Shown: positions 8,156 through 55,869 of the stretch, one piece after another
How the letters are laid out: the number at the start of each line of letters is the position of its first letter
How positions within the stretch are numbered: position 1 is the stretch's first letter
Assembly: GCA_046759465.1 (NCBI GenBank)
Contig: JBHICH010000005.1
Coordinates: 1-55,869, forward strand
DNA: 55,869 nucleotides
Direction: 5' to 3'
Origin: Nitrososphaerales archaeon
GTDB lineage: Archaea; Thermoproteota; Nitrososphaeria; Nitrososphaerales; UBA213
Notes under the pieces: generated by a model
Seen by the model: the letters and a program-made list of their open reading frames with translations, nothing else
What the model was told of the DNA's origin: nothing
Databases searched by the model: none
Translations under genes and position numbers: made by a program

Positions 8156-8275
8156 ATGATTGAGGTCGACCCAACATTAAGACTTGTAATTGCTTCTGTG
8201 ATCATAGTTATAGGATCTGGATTGTTATCTTCATATTTCATGGAAAAGAAGAAAATTCAGAAGCAAAAGCCGTAG
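8156..8275 (+). CDS. 39-aa single-pass membrane mini-protein (not in ORF track)
   Basis: MIEVDPTLRLVIASVIIVIGSGLLSSYFMEKKKIQKQKP has one hydrophobic helix and a Lys-rich tail. A GGAGG motif lies 5 nt upstream of the ATG. Confidence 0.45.
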   Translation: MIEVDPTLRLVIASVIIVIGSGLLSSYFMEKKKIQKQKP

Positions 8276-10673: not shown

Positions 10674-11468
10674 ATGCCCACTATAATTTCGGTAGCAAAC
10701 GAGAAGGGAGGGGTCGGTAAGACAGATCTCTCGGTAAACCTCAGTTCCTGCTTAGCTCGAGCAATAAGCAGGGAGATTCTGCTAATAGACCTTGATCCTC
10801 AAGCAAATACAACAAGATACCTGATTAAAGAAGAAAGTGAACTAACTTCAGCAGACCTCCTTATAGATCCAGCTATTAACATCGATGATCTAGCGATACA
10901 AACCAACGTGCCCGGACTCAGTCTGATACCAGCAAGCAAAGGCCTGAGTGCAGTACAGTTACGCATCGCAACAGATGCTGACATGCAGTTCAAGCTGAAA
11001 CGTAAGTTAAGTCTGCTAACAGATCGCTATCAGCTGATTTTCATAGATACACCCCCATCGTTAGGAGTACTAACGATAAACGCTCTGGCAGCTTCCAACT
11101 TCGTGATTGTTCCAGTGCAAACACATTACTTCCCCCTATACGGATTAAGTGATTTAATGGAAACTATTGACAAGCTCAAGTTTGAGATCAATCCCAGTTT
11201 AGAGCTGCTCGGCATAGTGCTCACCATGTATGATAAAAGAACACGAATAGCAAGAGAGATCGCAGATACGATAAGAGAGAGGTTCGATGGGAAGCTATTT
11301 TCAACAAAGATACCGGTTTGCGTAAAGACCGCCGAATCTCCTAGCCATCATAAACCCGTGATGACCTATGCACCCTCAAGTTCAATTACTCAATCCTACA
11401 AGTCATTGAGCGAGGAGTTTCTGAAATGTCTAGAAGGTTGCAAGATAACCCCTTGCACAATGAAGTAG
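10674..11468 (+). CDS. parA: ParA/Soj/MinD-family partition ATPase
   Basis: 264-aa ORF. It has the deviant Walker A NEKGGVGKTD, the Walker A' LLIDLDPQAN, and the Walker B-like IFIDTPPS. Confidence 0.9.
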   Translation: MPTIISVANEKGGVGKTDLSVNLSSCLARAISREILLIDLDPQANTTRYLIKEESELTSADLLIDPAINIDDLAIQTNVPGLSLIPASKGLSAVQLRIATDADMQFKLKRKLSLLTDRYQLIFIDTPPSLGVLTINALAASNFVIVPVQTHYFPLYGLSDLMETIDKLKFEINPSLELLGIVLTMYDKRTRIAREIADTIRERFDGKLFSTKIPVCVKTAESPSHHKPVMTYAPSSSITQSYKSLSEEFLKCLEGCKITPCTMK

Positions 11469-11653
11469 CAAGGCGAAAGAAGTCGCATCCTGACAGATAC
11501 CTTAGACCATTCTTTAAAAAGAATGTTACCCGAGATTATTCGCCCTGCTGTCCAAAATGTTTTCAACAACTATTTCAGGATCATGGGGACGAATACGTGT
11601 GGTGCGATTGCGGGAAAAGTTACCAGCTAGTGGAGATGGATGCACCACAGTGA
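11426..11653 (+). CDS. basic N-terminus + zinc-ribbon small protein, overlapping the parA 3' end
   Basis: 75-aa ORF whose start lies 43 nt inside parA. It has an Arg/Lys-rich N-terminal half and then CCPKC...CDCG (a 4-Cys ribbon). Confidence 0.5.
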   Translation: MSRRLQDNPLHNEVARRKKSHPDRYLRPFFKKNVTRDYSPCCPKCFQQLFQDHGDEYVWCDCGKSYQLVEMDAPQ

Positions 11654-23541: not shown

Positions 23542-23694
23542 TCTTGCAATTGCATTGATATGGAAGATATATTAGTCTATCAATTTTGACAAGTTAATTG
23601 TAGCTAGGATATTTAATAAAAGAAGTTTATTGAATTAAGAAGGGATTTCTTCTACAATCAGGCTATAGCTGATTAAGTGAATATAGTTTCTTGC

Positions 23695-23784
23695 TCATAT
23701 CACGCCCTCCACAAGCATCGTTATCATAACAAGAATGCCCATGAATAGCAGGAAAGCTAAGATACCTCTAGACATATGCTTCAT
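23695..23784 (-). CDS. micro-ORF 8: 29-aa hydrophobic (single TM) peptide
   Basis: MKHMSRGILAFLLFMGILVMITMLVEGVI. The ATG abuts the stop of micro-ORF 7 (TAAATG). GGGTGA lies 8 nt upstream. Confidence 0.4.
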   Translation of the reverse strand: MKHMSRGILAFLLFMGILVMITMLVEGVI

Positions 23785-23901
23785 TTAATTCACCCAAGTA
23801 ATTCCCATTCTTCGCATGTGTTTTTCAGAACAACTGTTACACCGCAGAAAACTGCGGCCAATCGGTTTTCCGCAATTTTTGCATTTAAACATATTTTTCA
23901 T
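23785..23901 (-). CDS. micro-ORF 7: 38-aa zinc-ribbon peptide
   Basis: MKNMFKCKNCGKPIGRSFLRCNSCSEKHMRRMGITWVN has CKNC...CNSC. AAAGGTGAG lies 4 nt upstream of the ATG. Confidence 0.5.
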   Translation of the reverse strand: MKNMFKCKNCGKPIGRSFLRCNSCSEKHMRRMGITWVN

Positions 23902-24009
23902 TTTCTCACCTTTAGGGCCAGCTTAGATACTGAAGCATCTACTGGCGCCGGCGTGCGGTGGTGATGATTCGGAACGAATGTATTGAAAACGATGTCCGTT
24001 CCTTTGAAT

Positions 24010-24141
24010 TCACTCCGTCAAGCTTCTATATTCCATATGACCGCAATGCATGCAAAGTCTTCTTGTGTCGTTTAAATTATGCCAGTTTTTCTCGTTACAT
24101 ATTGGACAATTGCATAGTTCGGACATTCTTACTTTTGTCAT
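24010..24141 (-). CDS. micro-ORF 6: 43-aa zinc-ribbon peptide
   Basis: MTKVRMSELCNCPICNEKNWHNLNDTRRLCMHCGHMEYRSLTE has CNCPIC...CMHC. It starts 1 nt after the stop of micro-ORF 5. GGGAGTGATG lies upstream. Confidence 0.5.
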   Translation of the reverse strand: MTKVRMSELCNCPICNEKNWHNLNDTRRLCMHCGHMEYRSLTE

Positions 24142-24142
24142 C

Positions 24143-24304
24143 TTACATCACTCCCGCTATTTCCATCGGTTGTTCCATATTTCCGTTGCCGCGATTATGA
24201 CAAGTACATTTACAATCCTCATGACTTCGTCTGTAGTACGTGCATTGCTGGCAATAGTTCGTATGACCGTCTGGCTGTCCTATGTATTCGTAGGGCTTAT
24301 TCAT
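24143..24304 (-). CDS. micro-ORF 5: 53-aa Cys/His-rich peptide
   Basis: MNKPYEYIGQPDGHTNYCQQCTYYRRSHEDCKCTCHNRGNGNMEQPMEIAGVM. Its ATG overlaps the rps30e stop (ATGA). AAGGAG lies immediately upstream. Confidence 0.5.
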   Translation of the reverse strand: MNKPYEYIGQPDGHTNYCQQCTYYRRSHEDCKCTCHNRGNGNMEQPMEIAGVM

Positions 24305-24510
24305 CTCCTTTGATCCCTCCGTCTAAATTGGTAGTGCGGTTTGCGTTTCTGCATGTTCTTATATCTTCGTTTATGTTTAGTTAATGGATGGTGTCTGTTG
24401 ACAGTGTTAACTGTTTTCAGAATCTTCGGTGTCTGACTCTTTACTTTACCGGCTTTTGTCAATGAGCCATGACTGGCCATCTTTGCTGGTGTGCGCTTGG
24501 TGCAGCTCAT
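24301..24510 (-). CDS. rps30e: 30S ribosomal protein S30e (micro-ORF 4)
   Basis: 69-aa ORF containing the eS30 signature HGSLTKAGKVKSQTPKI and a basic tail. AAGGTGAG lies upstream of the 24510 ATG. The alternative start MASHGS at 24480 has no SD. Confidence 0.8.
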   Translation of the reverse strand: MSCTKRTPAKMASHGSLTKAGKVKSQTPKILKTVNTVNRHHPLTKHKRRYKNMQKRKPHYQFRRRDQRR

Positions 24511-24666
24511 TTAGTTCATCTCACCTTCTCTTCTGTAGATCTGTCTGATTGGTGCTTCTATAACTCTCAGTTTATGGACTTGCTCTGCATGATCTATCAT
24601 TCTCCAATAGTTGCTAGTCTTGAAACCGCATTTTTCCTGAGCGCAAATGAAATCTGATAGAGTCAT
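24511..24666 (-). CDS. micro-ORF 3: 51-aa classical C2H2-type zinc-finger peptide
   Basis: MTLSDFICAQEKCGFKTSNYWRMIDHAEQVHKLRVIEAPIRQIYRREGEMN has C-x4-C-x12-H-x4-H spacing. Its stop abuts the rps30e ATG (TAAATG). GGAGTGAGG lies upstream. Confidence 0.5.
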   Translation of the reverse strand: MTLSDFICAQEKCGFKTSNYWRMIDHAEQVHKLRVIEAPIRQIYRREGEMN

Positions 24667-24667
24667 T

Positions 24668-24772
24668 TTAACACATCCTCACTCCGCTTTGAACTATTGA
24701 TATGTAGTTGATTTCTGGTTTGATCTTCAGCTTTGGCTTTGTTGGTTTTACTTTATTTTCTGGTTTATTCAT
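24668..24772 (-). CDS. micro-ORF 2: 34-aa Lys/Pro-rich peptide
   Basis: MNKPENKVKPTKPKLKIKPEINYISIVQSGVRMC fits exactly between micro-ORFs 1 and 3 with 1-nt gaps. This is the weakest of the set. Confidence 0.3.
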   Translation of the reverse strand: MNKPENKVKPTKPKLKIKPEINYISIVQSGVRMC

Positions 24773-24773
24773 T

Positions 24774-24908
24774 TTATCTCACTTCCGCACCTAGTTCTAC
24801 TAATTCATGTCTTAGACAGTCGTTGCAAATGTCAACGGCTAGGACTGATAATACCCAATTGATTGGTATGTGTCCTCCACATTTCGTACAACTATATTTC
24901 TTATTCAT
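24774..24908 (-). CDS. micro-ORF 1: 44-aa zinc-ribbon peptide
   Basis: MNKKYSCTKCGGHIPINWVLSVLAVDICNDCLRHELVELGAEVR has CTKC...CNDC. GAGGAGTGATGAGA lies directly upstream of the ATG, close to the archaeal anti-SD complement GGAGGTGAT. Confidence 0.5.
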   Translation of the reverse strand: MNKKYSCTKCGGHIPINWVLSVLAVDICNDCLRHELVELGAEVR

Positions 24909-25003
24909 TCTCATCACTCCTCAAGATTACATACACAAACATCGCTTATATAGGTAACTATAGTATGATATAGTTTAAATATTATATTTGTGTATGAAAT
25001 ATT

Positions 25004-25153
25004 ATGAGTGAAATTAGTAATCAGTTCAAGTTTGTGGGAAAAATCTCGAAAATGGGTGATAACCGCATTATCTGGATTCCTAAAGAATTTCATGGATATC
25101 TAGAATCAATGATGGGTAAGCAAGTTAAGATCGTTCTTACGGATGATATTTAG
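25004..25153 (+). CDS. 49-aa AbrB/SpoVT-like (swapped-hairpin) putative DNA-binding protein (not in ORF track)
   Basis: MSEISNQFKFVGKISKMGDNRIIWIPKEFHGYLESMMGKQVKIVLTDDI shows the pattern K-hS-K-h-G-x-x-hhhhIPKEh...G-x-x-V-x-I. It is divergent from the micro-ORF operon, sharing a 95-bp AT-rich region with TATA-like CTTATATAGG and TTTAAATATT. Confidence 0.45.
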   Translation: MSEISNQFKFVGKISKMGDNRIIWIPKEFHGYLESMMGKQVKIVLTDDI

Positions 25154-25269
25154 AATATTTTTCGCACTTGCAAAACATGCAGCAACTCCTTAATGAAAGT
25201 GTAATGTAGGCGAATTTTGGATAAATCAATCTCTCTAACACATTTTGGTGCTATTCAATTCCTGTAAAA

Positions 25270-25735
25270 AATAGGGGGGTTGCTTGAGCATTTCATTGAT
25301 AAATCAAGGTACCTTTTGTGTTCTTGCCGCTTCGCTCTATGAGACGCAGTATTTCAATTCTTTTTCCTAGCATAGCACTACAGGGAGGTTAAGGTAATTA
25401 CAGCAAGCAGCGAAAGGGCGATAACGAGCGTTTGTAAGCTCACCGGAATCTCAGTGCTGTAGTATGCGGTACTCAATGCTAGCATCGCGGAGAGGGTGTT
25501 TGGTAATGTGCCAAAGCCGTATCTTGAGCACTTGCTTAAGAAAGACCATTGATCAAACCGATCGTGTAATTTATTTTGATTAATCACTAGTGATAATTCT
25601 ACCAAAAAACAATTTAAACCAGCGGTTCCATCAAAATATCGACTAGTGGATGCGATCAGAGCATGCACTGGGCAATGGAATTGGGCAAAGTAGGAATTTC
25701 TTGTAATTCCTGCCGTCCCACCCAATTCCTGTTAA
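25270..25735. ncRNA. candidate structured non-coding RNA region (identity and strand unresolved)
   Basis: This is part of a roughly 900-bp stretch with no credible ORF. Local GC is higher than in the flanking spacers. A compound hairpin sits at 25677-25729 (GGAATTGGG/CCCAATTCC enclosing AGGAATT/AATTCCT). A perfect 12-nt palindrome ATCACTAGTGAT is at 25583-25594. CTTGAGCA is duplicated (25283, 25523). Short plus-strand resemblances to RNase P CR-II/III exist (GCGAAAGGGCG..TAACGAGCG at 25409-25430), but no clear CR-I. Confidence 0.3.
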
Positions 25736-26066
25736 TGCAATTTTTATCGTCAGTTCTGTAACAATGAAACTACCAGCTAATTAAAAGTATCTTTTACATG
25801 AACACTAATCCTAATTTTAGCTTATTTAAATATCAAAAATTTTTCCACGACTTGGATCATAAGATGACCATTCCGTCGGATCATCAGCCGAAAAAAATTG
25901 CTTGATTTTTTCTAACAAATTTCTGTATCAGCATTTTCTAGATCAAGTGATGTCATAATGCGTTCGTTCATAAATGAATTTCTGTAAACGTTGTAAATTT
26001 CAATTTGCAGAAAAGCGGCGCCCACAGTAAGCATGTTCGCCATCTATCGGTGCTGTATTGTGATTG

Positions 26067-55690: not shown

Positions 55691-55735
55691 AAATAAGCTG
55701 TGATGACTCTGAATTATTCGGCGCACTCAAAAGTA

Positions 55736-55825
55736 AGCCTCGGGCGGGCTTCGATCCCGCGACCCACAGCTTACAAGGCTCAACCATAAAATGTCTGTTG
55801 CTCTACTAGGCTGAGCTACCGAGGC
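55736..55825 (-). tRNA. tRNA-Thr (anticodon UGU) with a 16-nt intron at non-canonical position 30/31
   Basis: Manual fold: acceptor GCCTCGG/CCGAGGC, D arm GCTC-AGCCTAGTA-GAGC, T arm GCGGG-ATCGAAG-CCCGC. Removing ACATTTTATGGTTGAG gives the anticodon arm ACAGC-CTTGTAA-GCTGT. The pre-tRNA forms CAAC-AG|A...GTTG-AG|C, a bulge-helix-bulge. Confidence 0.8.
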
Positions 55826-55869
55826 TCGCATTATTGGCAATTGGGCGGCATTTAAAATCTTACGCAATG

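Follow-up and report, generated by a model that had tools for sequence, protein, structure and literature searches.

Small proteins are the least charted portion of archaeal proteomes, and to our knowledge those of ammonia-oxidizing archaea are essentially unstudied. Among the closest parallels to the locus described here are the one-domain zinc-finger micro-proteins of Haloferax volcanii, HVO_2753 and HVO_0758 (PMC6562870, PMC11241148, PMC10716476). These C(P)XCG proteins have at most 70 amino acids (aa), a single domain with two CxxC pairs and no enzymatic domain, and annotation commonly overlooks them. Further parallels are found in eS30, an archaeal ribosomal protein of patchy distribution (PMC3353972), in the AbrB/MazE/SpoVT proteins, which include AbrB-type VapB and MazE antitoxins, and in the small-ORF modules of archaeal viruses and integrated elements. 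Here we analyzed a locus in a 55,869-nucleotide (nt) stretch of a Nitrososphaerales archaeon (contig JBHICH010000005.1; hereafter the window), where eight consecutive minus-strand open reading frames (ORFs; o1 to o8, from 24908 to 23695) include the gene for eS30 (rps30e, o4) and lie divergently from a 49-aa gene on the plus strand. The locus is probably a lineage-specific, strain-variable and translationally coupled micro-protein operon under the control of a small palindrome-binding regulator.

The eight ATG-initiated ORFs, of 44, 34, 51, 69, 53, 43, 38 and 29 aa, lie where an initial annotation of this DNA had placed them, and their successive gaps are, as it reported, 1, 1, 0, -4 (an ATGA overlap), 1, 108 and 0 nt. 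Its 49-aa plus-strand ORF (25004-25153), the 95-bp intergenic region (24909-25003) and the 62-87-aa plus-strand ORFs that pass a 60-aa listing cutoff in this region are present as well. The array has the shared strand, minimal spacing and internal Shine-Dalgarno (SD) sequences of a predicted operon, for which one promoter and one transcript would also be expected. Such tiling exceeds chance. When ATG ORFs of 29 aa or more are chained on one strand, the best chain links eight of them over 1107 of 1214 nt, while 2000 dinucleotide shuffles gave a mean coverage of 552 nt (standard deviation 144, maximum 999), never chained more than six ORFs and in no case (0/2000) reached 1107 nt. On the antisense strands of real window genes, chains covered at most 846 nt with at most four ORFs.

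The sequence AGGAGGTGATCC is the complement of the archaeal 16S rRNA 3′ end, a textbook relation that we took over for this contig. A 5-mer from it occurs at positions -18 to -3 of six of the eight starts, compared with 6.5% of all ATGs in the window (n = 2262) and 8 of the 43 starts of long ORFs (binomial P about 2e-6 for this a priori anti-SD test). An SD motif had been claimed before every start; with the broader motif set on which that claim was based, seven of the eight starts carry one (3.5% background), whereas o2 has only a weak GAAGTGA. With either set, the comparison with random ATGs, which had been proposed as a possible refutation, gave enrichment at the array starts. Six of the 11 distinct SD-preceded small intergenic ORFs of the whole window fall in this 1.2-kb stretch. 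By codon-usage log-likelihood the proposed frame is the best in seven of the eight ORFs, with values for o4 to o7 that overlap those of spurious ORFs; we did not rely on this test because the genuine eS30 gene (o4) also scores about 0.

What decided that these frames are genes was population variation. The window sequence was found in three hydrothermal-vent metagenome runs (X1-X3), with main-population depths of about 36, 14 and 6, and assembled Logan contigs of these runs, aligned with the region, include low-depth diverged versions beside the main population. In the proposed frames of o3, o6 and the 49-aa ORF, pooled, we counted 22 synonymous and 26 nonsynonymous changes over 58 and 275 sites, respectively. 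The ratio of nonsynonymous to synonymous changes per site (pN/pS) is therefore 0.25 (binomial P = 4.5e-6), and no stop codon appears, which indicates purifying selection. In four of the other five frames pN/pS is about 1.1-1.4; the antisense frame with third codon positions in common has 0.44, as expected. All five contain stops. A dN/dS near 1 and tolerated frame-breaking indels had been named as what would speak against the peptides. What we observed is a low ratio in the proposed frames only and an in-frame indel in o6. The diverged versions may be allelic or paralogous copies, and either is valid as a comparison for selection.

The individual variants agree with this picture. In a 189-nt contig, o6 differs by 20 listed substitutions and has lost 3 nt in frame (pN/pS 0.28); this version reads MTQVRMSELCNCPRCNQKSWHNLDTTKRLCTYCGYMEKSLTE*, keeps the start, the stop and all five Cys, and leaves the o5/o6 stop-start junction identical. 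The o3 variant covers the N-terminal half (24592-24666); of its changes, 5 are synonymous and 3 nonsynonymous, and C8 and C13 are kept. In two contigs the 49-aa ORF differs by about 14% substitutions and is intact (pN/pS 0.30). On another contig, at main-genome depth in the three runs, we found a paralogue of o5, PRQIDGHNRYCQQCTYYRRSHGNCTCKCHRG, that is 71% identical over 31 residues and keeps all Cys and His. The Cys/His motifs are thus kept in the o5 paralogue and the diverged copy of o6, and so are the two Cys within the covered half of o3. A variant of o8 (...ILAF ITFIGILVII for LLFMGILVMI) remains open and hydrophobic, with mostly conservative or synonymous changes. In a minor variant, 24710-24903 is swapped for 124 other nt; the o1 ORF again opens with a CxxC (MKIKKCKICAK), and the N-terminal part of o2 is swapped out. 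The single population polymorphism in o7 (23788 A>G) is synonymous, and the eS30 segment (about 24273-24592) is variant-free in all three runs while its neighbors vary, which fits stronger constraint on this segment. Local divergence of 13-14% and strain-level replacement occur inside otherwise identical flanks, and the cluster as a whole is fast-evolving and replaceable between strains. Taken together, o3, o6 and the 49-aa gene, along with o4 by homology, are the best-supported genes; variant or paralogue evidence supports o5, o8 and, less clearly, o1; and the support for o2 and o7 consists of context, SD and, in o2 only, codon usage.

The sequence motifs described for the peptides are all present: CxxC pairs in o1, o6 and o7, a C-x4-C-x12-H-x4-H arrangement in o3, and a Cys/His-rich o5, a Lys/Pro-rich o2 and a hydrophobic o8. 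The first cistron, o1 (24774-24908, minus strand, as are all eight), has a zinc-ribbon-like CTKC...CNDC, an SD GGAGTGA 5 nt upstream of its ATG and the best codon score of the six frames. The least certain cistron, o2 (24668-24772), is basic (isoelectric point 10) and ranks first in the set by codon log-likelihood, at 0.34 bits per codon. In o3 (24511-24666), C8-x4-C13-x12-H26-x4-H31 fits the classical C2H2 pattern C-x2-4-C-x12-H-x3-5-H; its start has the SD-like GAGTGA of the broader set and lacks the a priori 5-mer. No Pfam C2H2 family matched o3 at E ≤ 1, and its single-sequence AlphaFold2 (AF2) model, a weak test of fold, is all-helical and not beta-beta-alpha (predicted local distance difference test score, pLDDT, 76 for the best model and 50-64 for the other four). 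The 53-aa o5 (24143-24304; CQQC...CxCxCH) overlaps the o4 stop by ATGA and has an SD GGAGG/AAGGAG. Among 1.84 billion representative proteins it had no true homologue, and a match there to a low-complexity repeat protein was spurious. The zinc-ribbon-like o6 (24010-24141; CNCPIC...CMHC, that is CxCxxC...CxxC) has the SD GGGAGTGA; its best zinc-ribbon match, Zn_ribbon_RRN7 (E = 0.0018), is below the gathering score. The basic o7 (23785-23901; CKNCG-x9-CNSC, isoelectric point about 10) has an SD AAGGTGA, sub-threshold matches to generic zinc-ribbon models only and a codon score that is not supportive. The last cistron, o8 (23695-23784), encodes a hydrophobic single-span peptide with an SD GGTGA and a codon score of 0.27 bits per codon.

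Like the Haloferax proteins, o1, o6 and o7 place two CxxC (or CPxC) pairs in at most 70 aa, the zinc-ribbon/C(P)XCG pattern, and CTKCG in o1, CPIC/CMHCG in o6 and CKNCG in o7 are C(P)XCG-like motifs; in the o6 variant all Cys persist in spite of 11 substitutions. No named zinc-ribbon family matched these three at threshold, sub-threshold generic matches being all that was found. They differ from the Haloferax proteins in having no sequence homology to them (the o7 match to HVO_2753_ZBP is sub-threshold, E 0.38), and in that here five Cys/His peptides, which are putative zinc binders, are coupled in an operon with a ribosomal protein gene.

The suggestion that standard annotation would miss these genes is borne out by a database of 5.8 billion proteins: it includes the eS30 of the window but lacks the seven peptides and the 49-aa ORF, and a concatenated-peptide query of it gave no match, self-hits included. 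Family libraries recognized o4 alone and none of the seven peptides, Rfam found nothing over the region at gathering or E-value thresholds, and a metagenome scan with exact 8-mers returned nothing, while a second one, with a reference-plus-variant alignment, returned only the family of the 49-aa gene. None of the seven peptides had a homologue next to any eS30 gene or in any other collection searched. Gene callers and protein databases are thus blind to such loci, and this one holds seven unannotated candidates, several with population-genetic evidence of selection, in one operon with a ribosomal gene.

The fourth ORF (24301-24510) had been identified as S30e, and it is recognized by Pfam Ribosomal_S30 (PF04758; 31.1 bits against a gathering cutoff of 27, E = 2.7e-7, residues 14-52). 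However, homology begins only at Met11 of the 69-aa ORF, from which archaeal eS30 chains in the PDB align, agreeing at 18 of the first 20 positions. The NCBIfam S30e equivalog model NF006817 gives 40.7 bits, under its cutoff of 75, over model positions 1-49 of 52. The core HGSLTKAGKV.(S)QTPKI is intact, the middle is divergent, and the conserved Pro, the conserved Tyr and the basic tail are present. The SD sequence and the TAAATG coupling favor the start at ATG 24510 (69 aa), whereas homology favors ATG 24480 (Met11, 59 aa), which has no SD. Compared with other archaeal eS30 proteins, o4 has a possible 10-aa N-terminal extension, and it has MAS in place of MP(T/S). Its closest full-length relatives are Bathyarchaeia-type eS30 proteins, about 50% identical, with none closer among the 5.8 billion proteins. 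In the Bathyarchaeia genomes examined, and in lineages with a '...GQNWI' tail, the eS30 gene is standalone or upstream of an amidohydrolase and an ELP3-like radical S-adenosylmethionine gene. Here, in contrast, it stands fourth in an operon of micro-ORFs, and neither gene of the amidohydrolase-ELP3 pair is in the window. The order eS30 - amidohydrolase (about 525 aa) - ELP3-like is conserved in two other archaeal lineages whose eS30 has a '...GQNWI' or '...GQY' tail (L067-L073).

A canonical eS30 (MPTHGSLTKAGKV..QTPKLQARERIS; MPTHGSL...) belonging to a different, related population was seen in contigs of X1 and X2 that overlap window 24428-24471. Its core is 86% identical to that of the window at the nt level, and its depth is 17.6 and 3.1, compared with 36 and 14 for the window genome, so that the ratio is not constant. 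Read depth revealed no second eS30 copy at main-genome depth, a search made insensitive by the 60-79% nt identity that the cores of different lineages share.

Between o6 and o7 lies the only spacer of any length (23902-24009, minus strand). Its 108 nt fold into a structured RNA of -34.8 kcal/mol (z = -3.1), a value equaled by none of 200 shuffles, and its second hairpin pairs CACC with the GGUG of the o7 SD. The spacer could be a translational or processing control element.

The two predicted transcription units diverge from the 95-bp region at 24909-25003, which contains two TATA-like boxes, a palindrome and a half-site. On the minus strand, TATATAA (24946-24952) begins 44 nt before the o1 ATG; on the plus strand, TTTAAAT (24976-24982) begins 28 nt before the ATG of the 49-aa gene at 25004. 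The palindrome ACTATAGT (24957-24964), which has two copies in 55.9 kb, lies between the boxes, and the half-site GATATAGT is found at 24967-24974. The palindrome and the TATA-like boxes are unaltered in the diverged contigs. Read with the standard spacing of archaeal promoters, this geometry predicts an SD-containing operon leader of 16-19 nt, whereas the mRNA of the 49-aa gene, which has no SD, is probably leaderless.

The 49-aa gene (25004-25153, plus strand) encodes a putative DNA-binding regulator with AbrB/MazE-like features, and it is not a singleton. The second metagenome scan, seeded with the reference-plus-variant alignment, yielded 48 loci (L019-L066) with 50-68% identity, on Nitrososphaerales-like contigs that appear to come largely from soil and rhizosphere. 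The family consensus is xxQLKFVGRISSQGKNLIIWIPKEFHKDAKxLKGKQVKIVxDDNI (~45 aa). Upstream regions of family members contain 2-4 copies of CTATAG/ACTATAGT; CTATAG occurs there 1.94 times per 130 nt, about 28-fold above the background value of 0.068. For many members the apparent start codon is a GTG some 27 nt downstream of a TTTAAA box, in which case they would be leaderless. The claim that a small regulator-like gene shares the control region divergently is thus strengthened by a family of 48 loci and by the ACTATAGT palindrome between the TATA-like boxes.

The label AbrB/SpoVT-like, which the gene had also been given, fared less well. The protein resembles AbrB/MazE/SpoVT members in its length of about 45-50 aa, in its motif G..(I/V)(I/V).IPKE(F/L) followed by G..V.I, in the register of AbrB's GRVVIPIELR...DALEIYV, and in the position of its gene at a bidirectional promoter with palindromes. 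It differs from the antitoxins in that no toxin gene is adjacent, and its family is seemingly confined to Nitrososphaerales-like contigs. While register and motif make the label plausible, the signals from profile and structure searches are weak. Pfam MazE_antitoxin (PF04014) matched 2 of 16 family members at E = 0.03 and not the window copy; hhalign against AbrB/Abh/SpoVT gave 26% probability (E 7e-4) in the expected register; a PDB profile search returned 8jvr only (E = 0.57); and Foldseek with the AF2 single-sequence model (pLDDT 69) listed RIFT, MazE and VapB chains at the top, all at E > 1. We know of almost no characterized regulators of transcription in Nitrososphaerales, and a ~45-aa family with a recognizable palindromic putative operator offers a tractable entry to the subject.

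These observations suggest how the locus might work. One transcript would start about 16-19 nt upstream of o1, from the TATA-like box at 24946-24952. Its eight cistrons would be read by SD-dependent initiation combined with stop-start coupling across spacings of -4 to +1 nt, apart from the structured 108-nt spacer, which may sequester the o7 SD. The 49-aa protein would bind the palindrome ACTATAGT and the flanking half-sites, a likely operator, and so control its own gene and the operon together. The peptides are most likely small metal-binding factors that contact nucleic acid or protein, by analogy with the Haloferax zinc-finger micro-proteins. The linkage to eS30 would then be an accident of lineage gene order and not a conserved functional module.

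Comparison with relatives places the locus among core genes. The isoleucyl-tRNA synthetase (IleRS) encoded downstream of the array is closest to that of a Ca. Nitrosomirales metagenome-assembled genome (MAG; 79% aa identity), and the other close relatives come from further Nitrososphaerales MAGs. Core flanking genes (succinyl-CoA ligase, IleRS, TrmB regulator, CdvC-like MIT-AAA ATPase and carbamoyl-phosphate synthase) are colinear with relatives that include Ca. Nitrosomirales DSS1 (L002). The host is best read as a Nitrosomirales-related ammonia-oxidizing archaeon and the array as chromosomal, located between the TrmB regulator gene, with a conserved noncoding-RNA-like element, and ileS. The TrmB-ileS interval has 2526 nt in the window and 947 nt in DSS1, and nothing aligns between them apart from a non-coding element of 283 nt (window 25567-25848) and the start region of ileS. 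For this reason we consider the ~2 kb from 23575 to 25567, where DSS1 has ~410 nt, to be lineage-specific. The cluster is missing at this locus in DSS1 and in two further relatives (L011 and L001). The proposed check of conservation by tblastn, run with all nine peptides on 16 IleRS-anchored loci of relatives, matched no peptide, which means that the cluster lacks synteny at those loci. In trinucleotide composition the island does not stand out, and composition thus gives no argument for a foreign origin.

Several points weigh against a regulated operon of this kind. The single transcript, its start sites and the translation of the peptides are all predictions from sequence, and the structured spacer could split the operon into separate units. 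Among the 48 loci of its family, the regulator gene nearly always faces divergent genes for a FUN14-like membrane protein and an AAA ATPase instead of micro-ORFs, and for this reason regulation of the micro-ORF operon is an extrapolation; membership of the 49-aa protein in the AbrB superfamily is itself weakly indicated. The selection evidence comes from short Logan contigs in which allelic and paralogous copies are not distinguishable and a few differences are unlisted. Little independent evidence supports o2, with its weak SD, and o7, with its negative codon score. What bears on the eS30 copy number is one contig of the genome and the insensitive read-depth search.

The main rival derives 23575-25567 from a mobile element, an integrated virus or plasmid, of which it would be a remnant or a cassette inserted upstream of ileS. 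The zinc-finger ORFs and AbrB-like regulator would then form an early-gene module typical of archaeal viruses, with eS30 as an auxiliary, element-borne gene. We consider this unlikely, although much of the locus would fit it. Overlapping orphan ORFs of fewer than 70 aa, rich in zinc fingers, next to an AbrB-like regulator and variable between strains, are what such modules look like. The stretch is absent at the corresponding loci of the three relatives, and all seven peptides are orphans. Strain-level replacement and 13-14% divergence are seen within otherwise identical flanks. Elsewhere at main-genome depth there are pieces paralogous to o5 and 34 nt that match the 3′ end of the 49-aa ORF, a 70-nt dispersed repeat lies at the right edge, and the eS30 is atypical in falling below the NCBIfam cutoff. 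However, there is no integrase, replication or capsid gene among the ORFs and no flanking direct repeat or att site. Three scans of viral contigs (with the concatenated peptides, the o5 alignment and eS30) returned nothing, PHROG and PADLOC gave no significant family match, composition is ordinary, and the insensitive depth search saw no second eS30 at main-genome depth. Ribosomal protein genes are borne by phages, but eS30 is reported only from a retrovirus and from no archaeal virus (PMC6375957). It is quite improbable that the eS30 gene lies in, or was captured by, an exchangeable micro-protein cassette whose zinc-binding peptides bind or modify the ribosome, with co-occurring strains differing in their accessory sets. 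If true, this would mean an archaeal element-borne ribosomal protein with ribosome-tuning micro-proteins, or an extra paralogous eS30.

A different explanation takes the micro-proteins to be dedicated ribosome-associated factors or unrecognized ribosomal proteins, co-expressed with eS30. The initial annotation leaned toward this in describing a set built around rps30e, and we find it rather improbable. In its favor, the peptides share one operon with eS30, to which they are tied both physically and by translational coupling, and several are basic, o2 and o7 with isoelectric points of about 10. Small zinc ribbons are common among archaeal ribosomal proteins, and the eS30 segment is invariant across strains while its neighbors vary. 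Nevertheless, no peptide matches a ribosomal-protein model at threshold, and in Bathyarchaeia and the other lineages examined no micro-ORF homologues were found near eS30. Nor does the cluster occur at the same locus in the closest relatives, and, unlike core ribosome components, it is replaceable between strains. A ribosome-linked functional module is thus not supported by conservation. Least probable of all, to the point of being hardly tenable, is that the ORFs other than eS30 are non-coding, having arisen by chance or through decay of larger genes. The codon scores of o5, o6 and o7 (and o4) do fall within the range of spurious ORFs, the peptides have no homologues in the collections searched, and o3/o4 as well as o6/o7/o8 share a reading frame. 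Yet the bona fide eS30 scores equally poorly, so codon usage does not discriminate here, and tiling and SD statistics exceed chance. The frame-specific pN/pS of 0.25 without stops, the in-frame indel and kept Cys of the o6 variant, the unchanged o5/o6 junction and the Cys/His kept in the o5 paralogue leave this explanation largely refuted for o3, o5, o6 and o8. We therefore retain the micro-protein operon under its own small regulator as the favored interpretation.

The surroundings of the array and the rest of the window yielded some further observations. The 283-nt element downstream of the TrmB gene (window 25567-25848, minus strand; 9285-9561 in L002) is 77% identical to its DSS1 counterpart, has a TTTAAAT box at its beginning and contains a long perfect hairpin (GGAATTGGGTGGGACGGCAGGAATT...AATTCCTACTTTGCCCAATTCC). 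Its reading frames are broken between the window genome and DSS1 and it has no Rfam match, which makes it a candidate new non-coding RNA of about 230 nt. Reads over it have indels at 25699-25705 and skip 46 nt between 25730 and 25777. The 70 nt at 25490-25559 have a second copy, with 8 mismatches and unrelated flanks, on another contig at main-genome depth in the three runs, and thus bound the variable stretch on its right side with a short dispersed repeat. Read from an internal ATG that has no SD, the C-terminal part of a listed 115-aa ORF would give a possible hydrophobic peptide of 35 aa (MLALSTAYYSTEIPVSLQTLVIALSLLAVITLTSL; 25378-25485, minus strand). Two other SD-preceded small intergenic ORFs on the plus strand, one for a 75-aa protein with a CCPKC...CDC motif (11426-11653) and one for a 39-aa hydrophobic peptide (8156-8275), may be additional unannotated micro-proteins. 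Finally, at 55735-55826 (minus strand) ARAGORN predicts a tRNA-Lys(UUU) that Rfam at gathering threshold did not list; at 92 nt it is above standard tRNA length and probably contains an intron.

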